64,000 bases of DNA from an uncultured Acidobacteriota bacterium (GTDB lineage Bacteria; Acidobacteriota; Vicinamibacteria; Fen-336), in NCBI GenBank assembly GCA_963703985.1, contig CAVPGH010000001.1, positions 474,677-538,676 of the forward strand, in the 5' to 3' direction. Below are positions 30,109 through 47,837 of the stretch, one piece after another (within the stretch, counting starts at the first letter, position 1; the number at the start of each line of letters is the position of its first letter). Made by a program: the position numbers and the translations under genes. The notes beneath the pieces are model-generated. The model was not told where the DNA came from, made no database searches, and worked only from the letters and a program-made list of their open reading frames with translations.

Positions 30109-31371
30109 TCAGCCTCTCGCCGGCTTCTCTTCCTTCTTGCGACGGATCCAGCCGGTCTTCAGCACCTGACGGGCCCGGCCCAGGGCGAGGGAATGGGCGG
30201 GCACGTCTTCCGTGATGGTGCTGCCCGCCGCGATGTAGGCCCCCTCCCCCACCATCACCGGGGCCACCAGCGTCGAGTTGCTCCCCACGAACGCCCCCGC
30301 CTCGATGCGCGTCCGGTGCTTGTGGGTCCCGTCGTAGTTGCAGGTGATGGTGCCCGCGCCGACGTTCACGCCGGGGCCGATGGTGGTGTCGCCCAGGTAG
30401 GAGAGGTGCGGGGCCTTGCTGCCCTCGCCGAGGTGGGTCTTCTTCAGCTCCACGAAATTACCCACCTTGGCCCGCGGCCCCACCCGGCTCTCGGGCCGCA
30501 GGTGGGCGAAAGGCCCCACGGAGGCCCCCGCTTCGACCACGCACTCGCGCAGGAAGCAGTGGTCGAGGATCTGGGCGTCGGGGCCGATCTCGCTGTCCAC
30601 CAGGCGGGCGAAGGGTCCGACCGAAGCGCCCCGCCGCACCACGGTGCGCCCTTCCAGCATCGTGAACGGGCGCAGGTGGGCGCCCGGCTCGACCGTGACC
30701 CCGAGCCCGACCATCGTGCTCCCCGGGTCTTCCACGAGAACGCCGGCGGCGAGGAGCGCCGCGAGACGCCGATCGCGCAGGAGGCGCGAGGCCCCGGCCA
30801 GGTCGGCCAGGGAAGAGACGGCCAACACTTCCTGCGGGTCGTCGGGGGTGAAGGTCCGCACGAGCAACCCGCGTGCGGCCAGGAGGGAGCCGACCTCCGC
30901 GAGAGTCGCCAACGTCCCTGCTTGCGTATCGGCCAGGAGCGTGCGCAGCGGCGACGCCGCGAAAGCGAAGACGCCGTCGGAAACGGCGGTCACCGCTGCG
31001 CCCGAGGCGTGGTGGTCGGCGAGGAGGGCCCGGAGCGTTTCCGAGCGAAGGAGGGGGAGGTCGCCGCTCACGACCAGGAGCGTCGCTTGCGTACCCAGGA
31101 TCTCGCGCACCGCCCAGGTTTCGCCCCCGTTTGAAGGAGCGGGAGCCGGCGGCAGGAACCGAAGGTTCCGTCCCGGGAGGGCGGCGCCGACCGCGTCCGC
31201 TTCCGGCCCGGCGAGCACCGCGACGGGAGGAACGGCGAAGGGCTCCACCGCCCGCAGCACGTGAGCGAGCAGGGGCTCGCCCAGCGCGGGCAGCAGGGCA
31301 CTCGGCGTCGGGGTGCCCGTCCCCCGGCGGGTCGCGACGATCAGGACCTGCGGCGCGCTCGCGGTGCTCAA
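30109..31371 (-). CDS. glmU: GlmU-like protein: intact acetyltransferase (left-handed beta-helix) domain, degenerate uridyltransferase domain
   Basis: The C-terminal half has [38 protein letters not shown] and FVGSNS. The N-terminal half lacks the LAAGxGTRM/PK motif. Adjacent to glmS. Confidence 0.9.
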
Positions 31372-31974: not shown

Positions 31975-32075
31975 TGACTGAATAGTAAGTTGTGCAGCAT
32001 AACACGGCCGTCTTCGCGCCGCAATGAGCGCGCGCACAGCGGCCTTTGGTACAATCCCCTGTTGGCCTAACCATC

Positions 32076-34886
32076 ATGGAGCCCGGCCGAGACGAACCGA
32101 TCGTGATCCGGGGGGCCCGGGTCCACAACCTGAAGGGGATCGACTGCGACCTCCCGCGCAACCGGCTGGTCGTGATCACGGGCCCCTCCGGCTCCGGCAA
32201 GAGCAGCCTGGCGTTCGACACGCTCTACGCCGAAGGACAGCGCCGCTACGTGGAGAGCCTCTCCCCCTACGCGCGGCAGTTCCTCGAACAGATGGAGAAG
32301 CCCGACGTGGAGTCGGTCTCCGGGCTCTCCCCCGCAATCGCCATCGAGCAGAGGACCACGGTTGCGCATCCGCGCTCCACCGTGGGCACGGTGACCGAGG
32401 TCTACGACCACCTGCGGGTGCTCTTCGCCGCGCTGGGGAAGCCGCATTGCCCCCGGTGCGGCGAACCGATCGCCGCCCAGACCGCGGAGCAGATGGCGGA
32501 GAGGCTCCTCGCGGACTCCGCGGGGACTCCGGTGGCGGTGCTCGCCCCGGTGGTGCGCGGGCGGAAGGGGGCGTTCAAGAAGGAGCTCCAGGCCCTCGCC
32601 TCCGCTGGCTTCGTGCGAGCCCGGATCGACGGGAAGGGCTACAACCTGGTCGATCCCCCCGCGCTGGAGCCGCGCCGCAACCATCGCGTCGACGTGCTCG
32701 TGGATCGTCTGATCCTGCGTCCGGGCGCGGAGAAGCGCCTGCGCGCGAGCCTGGAGAAGGCGCTCCTCCTCGCCCACGACGTGGCCCTCGTCTCCTTCGA
32801 GGGGGGACCGGAGAAGCTGTTGAGCCGTCGCATGGCCTGCGTGCGCTGCGACGTGTCCGTGCCGGAGCTGAGCCCGCGCGCCTTCTCCTTCAACAGCCCG
32901 CACGGGGCGTGCGCGGCCTGCGACGGCCTGGGCATGCGCTGGGCGGTGGACGCGGACCGGCTCATGCCGGACGAGGAGAAGACGATCCTCGAAGGCGCGA
33001 TCCTTCCCTGGCAGCGGCACGGCCCGCGTCTGGTGCGGGAGGCGCTGGAAGAGGTGGCAGCCCGACACGGCTTCTCCCTGGAGGTCCCGGTCCGCGAGCT
33101 GCCGAAGAGGGCCATCCAGGTCCTGCTCCACGGCGACGAGGACGGCTTCTCCGGGGTCGTCCCCTACCTCAAGAACCGCGTGGAGACACTCCTGCGCGCG
33201 GGTCCCGAGGCGGGCGAGGACGGGCGCGAGGACGGCGGCGGCGCCGAGGCCTTCGAGGACCTCTCCCCGTACCTCACGGAAGAGACCTGCCCTACCTGCA
33301 AGGGCGGGCGCCTCCGCGCGGAGAGCCTGGCCGTGCGCCTGCTCGGGCGCACGGTGGCCGAATACGTCCGCCTCTCCCTTCGAGAGGCCCGGGAGGTGGT
33401 CGGTGCCCTCGTCTTCGGCGAGCGAGAGCGGCCGGTGGCCGATCGCCTGCTGCAGGAGATCGTGGGCCGGCTCGTATTTCTCGAATCCCTTGGGCTCGGC
33501 TACCTCACCCTCGACCGGCCCACCACCACGCTCTCCGGCGGCGAGGCCCACCGCATTCGCCTCGCCACGCAGATCGGGGCGCGGATGCAGGGGATCCTCT
33601 ACGTGCTCGACGAGCCCTCGGTGGGGCTGCACCAACGCGACAACGCCCGTCTCCTGGAGACGCTGCACTCGATCCGCGACATGGGAAACACCGTCGTGGT
33701 CGTGGAGCACGACGAGGAGACGATCCGTGCTGCCGACTGGGTGCTGGACCTCGGCGAGGGCGCGGGCCGGCTGGGGGGCAAGCTCATGTACGCGGGCCCT
33801 CCCGGCTCCATCAACGGCAGCCTCACCGGGCGTTATCTCCGCCGTGAGCTGGAGATCCCCCTCCCCAAGGCGCGGCGGACGGCCCGCGGTGCCATCCGCA
33901 TCCTGGGGGCCCGCCACCACAATCTGCGGGACATCGACGTCGAGATCCCCCTCGGCGTGCTCACCGCGGTGACCGGAGTCTCGGGCTCCGGCAAGTCGAC
34001 GCTGGTGGACGACATCCTTCACCGTACGCTCGCGCGCCGGCTCTACAAGGCGGCGGCGGAGCCGGGCCGCCATCGTGCGCTCGAGGGGGCGGAGACGATC
34101 GACAAGGTCATCGCGATCGACCAGAGCCCGATCGGGCGGACGCCCCGCAGCAACCCCGCCACCTACACCGGCGCCTTCGGCTTCATCCGCGAGCTGATGA
34201 GCCTCACTCCCGAGGCCCGCGCCCGCGGCTACAAGCCGGGGCGTTTCTCCTTCAACGTGAAAGGCGGCCGCTGCGAGGGCTGCCAGGGCGACGGCCTGCG
34301 GCGCATCGAGATGCACTTCCTCCCCGACGTCTACGTGCAGTGCGACGCCTGCAAGGGGCGGCGCTACAACCGCGAGACCCTGGAGGTGCTGTACCAGGGA
34401 CGCAGCGTGGCCGACATCCTGGACCTCACGGTCGCGGAGGCGCTCGTGGTCCTGGAGGCGCATCCTCGCCTCAACCGCCTGCTCACGACCCTCGTGGACG
34501 TGGGGCTCGGCTATCTGCGGCTGGGCCAGAGCGCGAGCACCCTCTCGGGCGGGGAGGCCCAGCGAGTGAAGCTGGCCCGCGAGCTGGGCCGGCGCGAGAC
34601 CGGGAACACCCTCTACCTTCTCGACGAGCCGACGACCGGGCTGCACTTCGACGACATCCTCAAGCTCCTTCACGTGCTCGGCCGGCTCGTGGAGACGGGC
34701 AACACGGTGGTCGTCATCGAGCACAACCTCGACGTGATCAAGTGCGCCGACCACGTGGTCGACCTGGGTCCCGAAGCGGGCGACGGGGGAGGACGGGTCG
34801 TCGCATTTGGAAGCCCCGAGGACGTGGCGCGCTCGGGCAAGAGCCATACGGGCCTCTTCCTCCGACCGCTCCTGGCCATCGGCTGA
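32076..34886 (+). CDS. uvrA: Excinuclease ABC subunit A
   Basis: Two ABC modules (GPSGSGKSS, GVSGSGKST; LSGGEA twice), zinc fingers, IDQSPIGRTPRSNPATY; uninterrupted frame. Confidence 0.99.
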   Translation: MEPGRDEPIVIRGARVHNLKGIDCDLPRNRLVVITGPSGSGKSSLAFDTLYAEGQRRYVESLSPYARQFLEQMEKPDVESVSGLSPAIAIEQRTTVAHPRSTVGTVTEVYDHLRVLFAALGKPHCPRCGEPIAAQTAEQMAERLLADSAGTPVAVLAPVVRGRKGAFKKELQALASAGFVRARIDGKGYNLVDPPALEPRRNHRVDVLVDRLILRPGAEKRLRASLEKALLLAHDVALVSFEGGPEKLLSRRMACVRCDVSVPELSPRAFSFNSPHGACAACDGLGMRWAVDADRLMPDEEKTILEGAILPWQRHGPRLVREALEEVAARHGFSLEVPVRELPKRAIQVLLHGDEDGFSGVVPYLKNRVETLLRAGPEAGEDGREDGGGAEAFEDLSPYLTEETCPTCKGGRLRAESLAVRLLGRTVAEYVRLSLREAREVVGALVFGERERPVADRLLQEIVGRLVFLESLGLGYLTLDRPTTTLSGGEAHRIRLATQIGARMQGILYVLDEPSVGLHQRDNARLLETLHSIRDMGNTVVVVEHDEETIRAADWVLDLGEGAGRLGGKLMYAGPPGSINGSLTGRYLRRELEIPLPKARRTARGAIRILGARHHNLRDIDVEIPLGVLTAVTGVSGSGKSTLVDDILHRTLARRLYKAAAEPGRHRALEGAETIDKVIAIDQSPIGRTPRSNPATYTGAFGFIRELMSLTPEARARGYKPGRFSFNVKGGRCEGCQGDGLRRIEMHFLPDVYVQCDACKGRRYNRETLEVLYQGRSVADILDLTVAEALVVLEAHPRLNRLLTTLVDVGLGYLRLGQSASTLSGGEAQRVKLARELGRRETGNTLYLLDEPTTGLHFDDILKLLHVLGRLVETGNTVVVIEHNLDVIKCADHVVDLGPEAGDGGGRVVAFGSPEDVARSGKSHTGLFLRPLLAIG

Positions 34887-35018
34887 GCTGCGGTCGAGGG
34901 CGGCGGCGTTGCGAATACGCCACAGCGTGGCGAGCCAGCCCGTGGCCGGGCGGGCACAGACGATGTTCTCCATGAGCCTAACCATAGCTGGAGCAGCAAG
35001 ATAGAAACGTAGCCTCGG

Positions 35019-35034
35019 TGGCACCTCACTTGCA
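35019..35034 (+). promoter_or_regulatory. sigma54 (-24/-12) promoter upstream of lpxC
   Basis: TGGCAC-CTCAC-TTGCA is an exact match to TGGCAC-N5-TTGCW, about 60 bp before the lpxC ATG, in intergenic DNA. Confidence 0.8.
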
Positions 35035-35093
35035 CACAGAGGGGCAGAAAAACCGCTCTCACCTGAGGCCTCGGCCAGGGGAGCACCTGGAGA

Positions 35094-36054
35094 ATGGGCT
35101 ACCGAAGAACCCTGCGGCGGGAAGTCGGCTGTACCGGCATCGGGCTTCATTCCGGGAAGCCGGTGCGGTTACGCCTTCTCCCCGCTCCTGCCGAGCACGG
35201 GGTCTGCTTCCGGCGGACGGACGTCGGAGTCCTGATCCCGGCGCGGCTCGACTGCCTGGGCGAACAAGACCACGCGACGACCCTCACTCGCGACGGGGTC
35301 AGCGTGGACACGGTGGAGCATCTCCTGTCGGCGCTCCACGGGCTGGGTGTGGACGATGCCCTCGTCGAGGTGGACGGCCCCGAGATTCCGATTCTCGACG
35401 GCAGCGCCGCGCCCTTCGTCATCCTGATTCACGAGGCTGGCCTCAAGCCCTGGAACGTAGCGCGACAATACCTGAAGGTCCTGGAGCCCGTGGAGGTGGT
35501 GCGCGGAGGCAAGAGAGCGCGCCTCCTGCCCGCCCGCGCACTTCGAGATCAGCTACACCATCGGCTTCGACCACGCGCTCTTGCGGCACCAGTCGCTTCG
35601 CCTGCGGCTCAGCCCGCGGACCTACTCGGAGGACATCGCCCCTGCCCGCACCTTCGGGTTCCTGCGCGAGGTGGAGACCCTGCGCCGCCACGGGCTCGCC
35701 CTGGGCGGCAGCCTGGACAACGCGGTCGTGATCGGCGAGACGGGCGTCCTCAACAGCAAGCTGCGCTTCGAGGACGAGTTCGTCCGGCACAAGATCCTGG
35801 ACGCGGTCGGCGACCTGGCGCTCCTGGGCTACCCTCTTGTCGGCCAGCTGGAAGCGACGAAGGCGGGCCATGCGCTCCACGCGGCGGTGGCCCGGAAGCT
35901 GGTCGAGACTCCGGGGGCCTCGCGTCTGGTGACGAGCCCCGGGCTTCCCGCCTCCGCCTCCCGCCTCCGTTCCCGCCTTCTCGCTGCGTCCTTCCGAAGC
36001 CTGACCCCGCGCCCGCCGCGACCCGGTCCTACTTCTCGGGCGGCACTACCGTGA
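35094..36054 (+). CDS. lpxC: UDP-3-O-acyl-GlcNAc deacetylase (indel near 35535; end approximate)
   Basis: GIGLHSG, TVEHLLSAL, EIPILDGSA, IAPARTFGF, LRFEDEFVRHKILDAVGDL, KAGHALH. Confidence 0.97.
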
Positions 36055-36444
36055 CCGCGACCTTGACCTCGGCCACGCTCGTCTCGGGGTCGTTGGAGCG
36101 GATGAGCACCGTGCGCTCCATCTCGCCCGAGTAGCTCCGCGTCTCGAGGGAGACCCGGAGGGGAGTCGTGCTCCCCGGCTTGACCACCTTGTCCGCGAGG
36201 AGGGCGGCGGTGCAGCCGCAGGTGGTGGACACGTTCTCGATCACGAGGTCCGCGGTCGCCGAAGTTGCGGATGCTGAACTCCTTCTGCAGCGTCTTGTTC
36301 TGCACCGCCTTCCCGAAATCGAAGGCGGCGGGCTCGATCGCGATCCGCGGGCCCTTGGCGGGGGCGTCCTTCTTCGCGTCCTGGGCGAGTGATTGGGACA
36401 GCGAAGCAGCGGGAAGACAGCAGGAAAAGAAAGGCACGTCTCAT
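36029..36444 (-). CDS. Secreted DUF1573-like (Ig-like) domain protein (indels)
   Basis: Signal peptide; FDFGKAVQNKTLQKEFSIRNFG.ADLVIENVSTTCGCTA...VKPG, the characteristic CGC motif. Confidence 0.8.
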
Positions 36445-36746
36445 GAGGACCTCCCGGCGGTCCGCCCCCGCCCCTTCTTCTTGGCGGCGGTGAGCTTCCG
36501 CATGTAGGCGTCCAGCATCTCGTTCTCGTAGGTCACGGAGTTCAGGAACAGGCTCTCCACCAGGTAGCGCCGCCGGTCTTCCTCCGTCATCTGGTCCACG
36601 AGGCGCTCGATCTCGCGCATCATGTCCTCGAAGGAGACCTGGAGCTGGTGCTCGAGGGTCACCTCGCGGTAGAGCGCCTCCAGGACGCCGAGGAGGTCCC
36701 CGTCGAGGACGAGCTCGGAGCCGGTGGTCAGGCGGACCTTACGCAT
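36441..36746 (-). CDS. Hypothetical 101-aa helical protein
   Basis: MRKVRLTTGSELVLDGDLLGVLEALYREV...YENEMLDAYMRKL; clean GC3-biased frame; overlaps the next start (ATGA). Confidence 0.7.
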   Translation of the reverse strand: MRKVRLTTGSELVLDGDLLGVLEALYREVTLEHQLQVSFEDMMREIERLVDQMTEEDRRRYLVESLFLNSVTYENEMLDAYMRKLTAAKKKGRGRTAGRSS

Positions 36747-39826: not shown

Positions 39827-40775
<949 letters not shown>

Positions 40776-47821: not shown

Positions 47822-47837
47822 AGCAAGGCAGGTGCCA
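47822..47837 (-). promoter_or_regulatory. sigma54 (-24/-12) promoter of the TPR-lipoprotein-Omp85 operon
   Basis: Minus strand TGGCAC-CTGCC-TTGCT is an exact consensus match, about 60 bp upstream of the TPR start. Confidence 0.8.

Follow-up and report, generated by a model that had tools for sequence, protein, structure and literature searches.

A conserved, probable sigma-54 promoter at the single-copy lpxC gene of a member of the Vicinamibacteria, and its plausible control by an NtrX-like activator

The lpxC locus

The stretch of 64 kb analysed in this work (the window) carries lpxC, the gene encoding UDP-3-O-acyl-GlcNAc deacetylase, downstream of uvrA (Table 1). The sequence TGGCACCTCACTTGCA (35019-35034, + strand) agrees exactly with the sigma-54 consensus TGGCAC-N5-TTGCW. 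Its GG (35020-21) and GC (35032-33) dinucleotides have 10 nt between them, as the consensus demands, and 59 nt lie between the end of the motif and the lpxC ATG at 35094. According to the usual geometry of sigma-54 promoters, lpxC transcripts are predicted to start near 35044-35047. The initial annotation had reported an exact sigma-54 motif about 60 bp 5' of lpxC, the location of lpxC after uvrA and outside the dcw cluster, and the lack of an obvious sigma-70 consensus in the uvrA-lpxC gap. All three observations hold. Consensus scans of the gap, which is 207 nt long, detected neither sigma-70-like promoters nor intrinsic terminators, and an Rfam search of the same 207 nt gave zero matches.

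Exact matches to TGGCAC-N5-TTGCW are infrequent. Two are found in the window, along with one site carrying one mismatch, and 19 in the whole genome (6.5 Mb), against 3.7 expected from base composition, and a mean of 2.4 obtained with permuted-hexamer controls. A small exported TPR-like ORF starts 60 nt after the second exact site of the window (47822-47837, - strand), which is preceded by a different dyad. Promoters of the sigma-54 type are silent without an activator. The genome contains rpoN (C1:3479648-3480122), and about 35 genes encoding proteins with a Sigma54_activat domain.

Table 1. Positions of genes and regulatory elements at the lpxC locus of the window
Feature	Position	Strand	Remarks
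uvrA, upstream neighbour (context only)	32046..34886	+	linkage to lpxC variable among relatives
Distal activator (UAS) dyad, GTTGC-N6-GCCAC	34908..34923	+	1 mismatch to GTGGY-N6-RCCAC; centre at about -130 from predicted start site
Middle partial dyad, GTGGC-N6-GCCCG	34927..34942	+	right half degenerate
Proximal activator dyad, GTGGC-N6-GGCAC	34942..34957	+	1 mismatch; centre at about -96 from predicted start site
Degenerate IHF-like box	34991..35003	+	6 of the 9 specified positions of WATCAR-N4-TTR; weak evidence in the window
Sigma-54 -24/-12 element, TGGCAC-N5-TTGCA (TGGCAC-CTCAC-TTGCA)	35019..35034	+	exact consensus, conservation, rarity in the genome
lpxC (UDP-3-O-acyl-GlcNAc deacetylase), single copy, frameshifted	35094..36054	+	Pfam matches of both halves, alignment to relative
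DUF1573 gene next to lpxC	35829-36532	-	split by frameshift; assembly break
Sensor-less sigma-54 activator after rsfS (AAA+, lid, HTH_8)	39827..40775	-	split by assembly frameshift

Structure and copy number of lpxC

The lpxC reading frame is interrupted in the assembly, which the initial annotation overlooked. The ORF starting at 35094 matches LpxC over residues 4-153 only, and then runs into an out-of-frame sequence rich in Arg, Pro and Ala. The C-terminal half of the protein, which includes the HKxLD and GHALH regions, is encoded in the +1 frame, between 35476 and 36054. The two halves, in two frames, match positions 1-149 and 131-267 of the LpxC model (PF03331 / TIGR00325), scoring 161 and 169 bits, respectively. 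The closest relative is a short-read MAG of the same genus, whose LpxC is intact, measures 302 aa, and is 90% identical at the protein level. Aligned to this gene, the lpxC of the window shows a single additional base near 35525, and probably a second one near 35957, in the variable tail of the gene. The true stop codon is probably at 36005-36007, where the stop of the closest relative aligns.

With its frame interrupted near 35525, and possibly a second time near 35957, lpxC might be regarded as a true pseudogene, and its promoter as a relic. We consider this extremely unlikely: both halves score strongly and together span the whole Pfam model, the same-genus MAG has an intact gene, and no other lpxC is found in the genome. 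The search of the entire genome returned two LpxC pieces only, which are the halves of one gene. A second copy is thus ruled out, and the idea, advanced in the initial annotation, that the gene could be a conditional second copy must be abandoned. One lpxC locus is present here, and the gene is single-copy in relatives too. The assembly consists of 3 contigs, and was scored 62.9% complete. Also split in it are rpoN, ntrY, ntrX, rsfS, the DUF1573 gene, and approximately 1 in 5 of the activator AAA+ domains, a pattern typical of long-read indel errors. Because so many other genes are split, the break in lpxC is almost certainly an error of this type, and not the outcome of gene decay. Single-base frameshifts are frequent, as in the window at 35515-35545, about 35957 and about 40572, or elsewhere at C1:3479648-3480122 and C3:649500-653200, and support from reads is needed before any broken ORF of this genome is called a pseudogene. 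GlmU (30109-31371, - strand) combines a weak N-terminal match (model positions 3-125, 38.8 bits) with a strong C-terminal part; here an assembly frameshift is ruled out, since the two parts share one open frame. Downstream of lpxC the next gene is convergent, and lpxC is therefore monocistronic.

Conservation of the promoter

Conservation was analysed in 40 related genomes, all MAGs, which represent 25 genera and 3 families of one order, the Vicinamibacterales. All of the 40 carry lpxC, and in essentially every locus the best -24/-12 candidate is found 27-82 nt 5' of the lpxC start codon. Sites with the GG and GC dinucleotides, scoring at least 9 of 11 and at most 100 nt away from lpxC, occur in 33 of 38 Vicinamibacterales loci. 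Scores of at least 9 are reached at 23 of 293,728 background positions in the same loci, which corresponds to a chance of 0.0066 per locus. The phylum set includes 80 lpxC loci from 55 families of Acidobacteriota, two unpublished genomes (G063, G088) being left out. Sites scoring at least 9 within 120 nt of lpxC were found in 50 of these loci and in 32 of the families, against a chance of 0.0077; the counts, here as in the order, span related genomes, and are not independent samples. Conservation of the site in relatives, whose lack would have spoken against the initial annotation, is thus well documented, the chance being below 1% per locus at either level. Judged from these comparisons, the sigma-54 site at lpxC is more than a chance match, and conservation is the strongest evidence for it. 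Among additional loci retrieved by protein search, those from Desulfobacteraceae and Thermodesulfobacteriota MAGs have a sigma-54 site at lpxC too; the alphaproteobacterial loci obtained by the LpxC search are devoid of it.

Dyads upstream of the promoter

When the loci of relatives were anchored at the -24 element, the dyad GTGGY-N6-RCCAC emerged in two or three copies 5' of the lpxC promoter. Flanks included, the consensus reads TGTKGC-N6-GCMACA. Full dyads in relatives are 32-34 bp apart, and are found 75-125 nt upstream of the -24 element. The window has two full sites, 34 bp apart, separated by a partial one, and this full-partial-full layout is common to many Vicinamibacterales loci. Dyads of the same type precede the lpxC promoter in the lineages of Acidobacteriota in which kinase and activator genes are adjacent to lpxC. 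Eight pairs of dyads with at most one mismatch occur in the genome, and the lpxC pair is the only one exhibiting the conserved 34-bp spacing. No convincing additional copies of the paired dyad, indicative of a regulon or of autoregulation, were found genome-wide. The occurrence of a single pair of the lpxC type would fit an activator having one target.

Of 38 relatives, 8 possess a strict IHF-like box, which starts 26-41 nt before the -24 element (26-28 nt in six of them), and is found nowhere else in the loci of those relatives. The degenerate box of the window sits where relatives have a good box. The strict IHF consensus was discarded as a general feature of these loci, given that it fits 8 of the 38 relatives only, and the window weakly. 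Six genes of the HU/IHF family reside in the genome.

The upstream neighbour of lpxC is not constant. Within Vicinamibacterales, uvrA is directly 5' of lpxC in some genera, one gene away in others, and absent from the fetched sequence in still other loci. Whichever feature is found upstream (uvrA, another gene or a tRNA), lpxC retains promoter and dyads. In two loci (L016, L021) the 3' end of a tRNA gene takes the place of uvrA just 5' of the lpxC dyads, and the regulatory region therefore moves with lpxC. In two loci of a sister family in the same class (L069 and L070, family f6) the 3' end of uvrA is found just 5' of lpxC. None of the three f6 loci (L069, L070, L073) has a sigma-54 site at lpxC. 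Because the end of uvrA adjoins lpxC, and the site is missing, co-transcription of lpxC with uvrA is possible in L069 and L070.

An NtrYX-like pair and the co-variation of its GAFTGA loop with the promoter

In 22 of the 80 loci of the phylum set lpxC is followed, on the same strand, by the genes of an NtrY-like kinase and an NtrX-like activator, often with a DUF4390 gene preceding that of the kinase. DUF4390 was not found in the genome under study, by a search whose control gave zero matches in any genome. The kinases encoded next to lpxC include NtrY_N, HAMP, PAS, HisKA and HATPase domains, and the activators have a REC-AAA+-HTH_8 architecture. An NtrY-like kinase gene is found behind lpxC also in Desulfobacterota MAG loci. 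The GAFTGA loop, through which these activators contact sigma-54, is intact in 18 of the 22 lpxC-adjacent proteins, and all 18 loci feature a sigma-54 element at lpxC (with scores of at least 9 in 16 of them, and of 8, at the usual position, in two). In the remaining four loci (L077, L098, L117, L132), each from a different family, a deletion of 8-9 residues removes exactly the GAFTGA loop, and no sigma-54-type site is found at lpxC. The loss of GAFTGA along with the promoter represents a natural experiment, which links the regulator to the lpxC promoter. It suggests that the lpxC circuit may have switched repeatedly to another sigma factor in four acidobacterial families. Alphaproteobacterial NtrX is not known to carry GAFTGA either, and the GAFTGA-less proteins of the four families would resemble it in this respect. 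The genes of the four deleted regulators lie about 3.5-4.2 kb downstream of lpxC.

Co-variation also bears on the hypothesis that the motif has no promoter function, and that transcripts of lpxC come from uvrA read-through, or from a sigma-70-type promoter which escaped recognition. No terminator is predicted between the two genes, family f6 has lpxC after uvrA and lacks the sigma-54 site, and transcription independent of activators would be a safe arrangement for an essential gene. Yet, the conservation of site and enhancer greatly exceeds what chance would produce, and does not depend on which gene lies upstream. The promoter co-varies with the GAFTGA loop of the adjacent activator, and nothing resembling a sigma-70 promoter is found in the gap. 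The hypothesis is accordingly rated as very unlikely. Read-through from uvrA could still add basal transcription of lpxC without displacing the sigma-54 promoter.

In the genome under study genes for an NtrY-like and an NtrX-like protein are found on contig C3, at about 649.5-651.8 kb and 651.8-653.2 kb, respectively. This contig differs from the one carrying lpxC, and the pair is not adjacent to lpxC in the Vicinamibacterales loci examined. No activator gene adjoins lpxC within the 1.5-3 kb flanks of the Vicinamibacterales and Desulfobacteraceae loci. Receiver domain and GAFTGA loop are both intact in the NtrX-like protein (REC, AAA+, Fis-type HTH), which shares 58% identity with an lpxC-adjacent NtrX-like protein, versus at most 49% for any paralog. 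The protein carries the recognition helix VERSNLYRKMK (ERSNLYRK), conserved in these regulators phylum-wide; a few paralogous activators have similar recognition helices. Orthologs of the NtrX-like protein (54-59% identity) are present in 38 of 41 Vicinamibacterales genomes, among which all 22 of high quality. No sigma-54 site was found near ntrYX in this genome. Nor is an HD-GYP regulator found beside the pair: the nearest HD-GYP gene is 12 kb away, and therefore does not form an operon with ntrYX.

These comparisons suggest that ntrYX moved away from lpxC in Vicinamibacterales, and that lpxC kept both promoter and enhancer. The NtrX-like regulator is most likely the activator of the lpxC promoter here, an assignment drawn from the association seen in other lineages, the two being unlinked in this genome.

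A second candidate activator

The analysis of longer lpxC flanks revealed a different sigma-54 activator, which lacks a sensor domain, is restricted to the order, and is convergent to lpxC. The protein carries a GAFTDA loop, and its Walker B motif is LYFDQ, with an E-to-Q change. The lpxC promoter could be real, but served in Vicinamibacterales by this protein, and not by the NtrX-like regulator. Orthologs, which are 49-93% identical, and thus clearly closer than paralogs, share the lpxC contig wherever contigs allow. They are convergent to lpxC, at a distance of 4-5 kb in two of the families (f1, f2), and of about 8 kb in the third (f3), and the linkage to lpxC is kept although that of uvrA varies. 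The protein has a DNA-binding domain of the HTH_8 type. On the other side, no ortholog is found in five sister-order genomes, 99-100% complete, which keep sigma-54 site and dyads at lpxC. The best matches therein are 43-47% identical, which is the level of paralogs. The recognition helix, ISRKALWEK, differs from the one travelling with the dyad across the phylum, and both the GAFTDA loop and the DQ residues of Walker B are atypical. Moreover, the promoter at 47822-47837, which has a dyad of its own, is an alternative target, and the sensor-less activator may serve this promoter instead. Altogether, we regard it as unlikely that this protein replaces the NtrX-like regulator, and it is the less likely of the two candidates for lpxC.

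The two proteins might also act in concert, lpxC being under an ancestral NtrX-like activator bound at the dyads, and an order-specific sensor-less one. The chances that this is the arrangement in Vicinamibacterales are slim. If true, the sensor-less activator could be a constitutive or dominant-negative modulator of the lpxC enhancer, or else could couple lpxC to the neighbouring outer-membrane module driven by sigma-54.

Proposed mechanism

We hold it probable that the element at 35019-35034 is a functional sigma-54 promoter, dedicated to a single-copy, monocistronic lpxC, and most likely served by the NtrX-like activator. Sequence features, conservation and co-variation are observed directly, and the model which we build on them can be described as follows. 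RNA polymerase carrying sigma-54 would bind the -24/-12 element as a closed complex. The TGTKGC-N6-GCMACA dyads, whose centres are at about -96 and -130 relative to the predicted start site, would be bound by an activator of the NtrC family. The GAFTGA loop of the activator would contact sigma-54, possibly aided by a DNA bend at the weak IHF-like box, and ATP hydrolysis by the activator would open the lpxC promoter. The activator is most likely the NtrX-like response regulator, encoded on C3 (about 649.5-653.2 kb) together with an NtrY-like membrane histidine kinase, through which a presumed signal would reach lpxC. The start site and the binding of the activator are predictions of the model, as is the dependence on rpoN.

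The initial annotation had concluded that lpxC is transcriptionally gated by sigma-54. Dependence on sigma-54 is strongly supported at the comparative level because of the conservation of the site, the upstream dyads, the presence in the genome of rpoN together with some 35 activators, and the joint loss of GAFTGA and promoter. For an essential gene, the term "gated" probably goes too far. lpxC is essential in most Gram-negative bacteria, and a promoter of this gene which depends on an activator only would need either constant activity of the activator, or a second source of transcription. By analogy with Desulfovibrio, "tuned through a two-component system" would fit the data available for those bacteria better than "gated".

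Comparison with known systems

In Escherichia coli lpxC (envA) is located at the end of the dcw cluster, and is controlled mainly through turnover of the LpxC protein (see also PMC3333781). The gene described here, in contrast, is monocistronic, lies after uvrA and not in dcw, and its promoter is of the enhancer-dependent type. The flux into lipid A is set by LpxC, and the control described in textbooks for enterobacteria is exerted by proteolysis, not by transcription. Enhancer-dependent transcription of lpxC, governed by an envelope sensor of the NtrYX type, may be an old and widespread alternative, and the present data add evidence for it. The basis for sigma-54 control of lpxC is now provided by experiments in Desulfobacterota, and by comparative evidence in much of Acidobacteriota.

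Control of lpxC by sigma-54 and a dedicated two-component activator is known already, having been demonstrated by experiments in Desulfovibrio (PMC3333781, PMC4045070). DVU2934, a response regulator of D. vulgaris acting with sigma-54, binds one site only, which is upstream of lpxC (PMC3333781), and the same link is listed in the paper on the D. vulgaris sigma-54 regulome (PMC4641369). In D. alaskensis G20 a sigma-54 site is found just 5' of the mapped lpxC transcription start site, the site of the activator has its centre at -101, and lpxC is the one gene with strong upregulation in the kinase mutant (PMC4045070). In Syntrophobacter lpxC is directly upstream of the regulator operon (PMC3333781). 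The locus analysed here shares with the Desulfovibrio systems (DVU2931/DVU2934 and Dde_3000/Dde_3003) a sigma-54 promoter directly 5' of lpxC and, about 100 nt before the start site, an activator dyad (-101 in G20, about -96 for the proximal dyad here, relative to a predicted start). In Desulfovibrio a two-component regulator endowed with GAFTGA has lpxC as its only target; here, the paired dyad is unique to lpxC.

Differences are evident as well. The dyad is GTGTAAAAAACACACA in G20, and TGTKGC-N6-GCMACA here. The organism belongs to another phylum, being a member of the Acidobacteriota, class Vicinamibacteria. An HD-GYP regulator is found beside the activator in D. vulgaris, but not beside the kinase and activator genes of this genome, and in the latter kinase and activator are unlinked from lpxC. 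The circuit typically has kinase and activator genes adjacent to lpxC, but does not require it, as the D. vulgaris genes are DVU2917 and DVU2931-2934. We infer a relationship between the NtrX-like regulator and DVU2934 from protein architecture, gene context, and the statement by Rajeev et al. that orthologs of DVU2934 are found in Acidobacterium capsulatum, as well as in Geobacter lovleyi (PMC3333781). The motif recognized by DVU2934 was not found in these two species (PMC3333781).

A link between NtrYX and the cell envelope has been described also in Rhodobacter sphaeroides. In this organism deletion of ntrYX increases lpxC transcripts 8.8-fold, an effect judged indirect by the authors, and no NtrX site was found at lpxC (PMC7240162). 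The domain organization of the kinase (NtrY_N, HAMP, PAS, HisKA, HATPase) and of the regulator (REC-AAA+-HTH) is the same. Unlike in R. sphaeroides, the regulator described here keeps GAFTGA, and lpxC is equipped with a sigma-54 promoter and dyads.

lpxC is mentioned neither by Francke et al. (2011) nor in the 2025 survey of sigma-54 regulons, and our search of the literature retrieved no paper dealing with a sigma-54 circuit of lpxC in Acidobacteriota. Compared to the published work, the new elements are the conservation of the promoter throughout the phylum, the consensus of the dyad, the co-variation of GAFTGA and promoter, and the finding that ntrYX is separate from lpxC in Vicinamibacterales. 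The dyad type for which Rajeev et al. searched without success outside Desulfovibrio now has a putative counterpart in Acidobacteriota, identified by comparing the regions upstream of lpxC.
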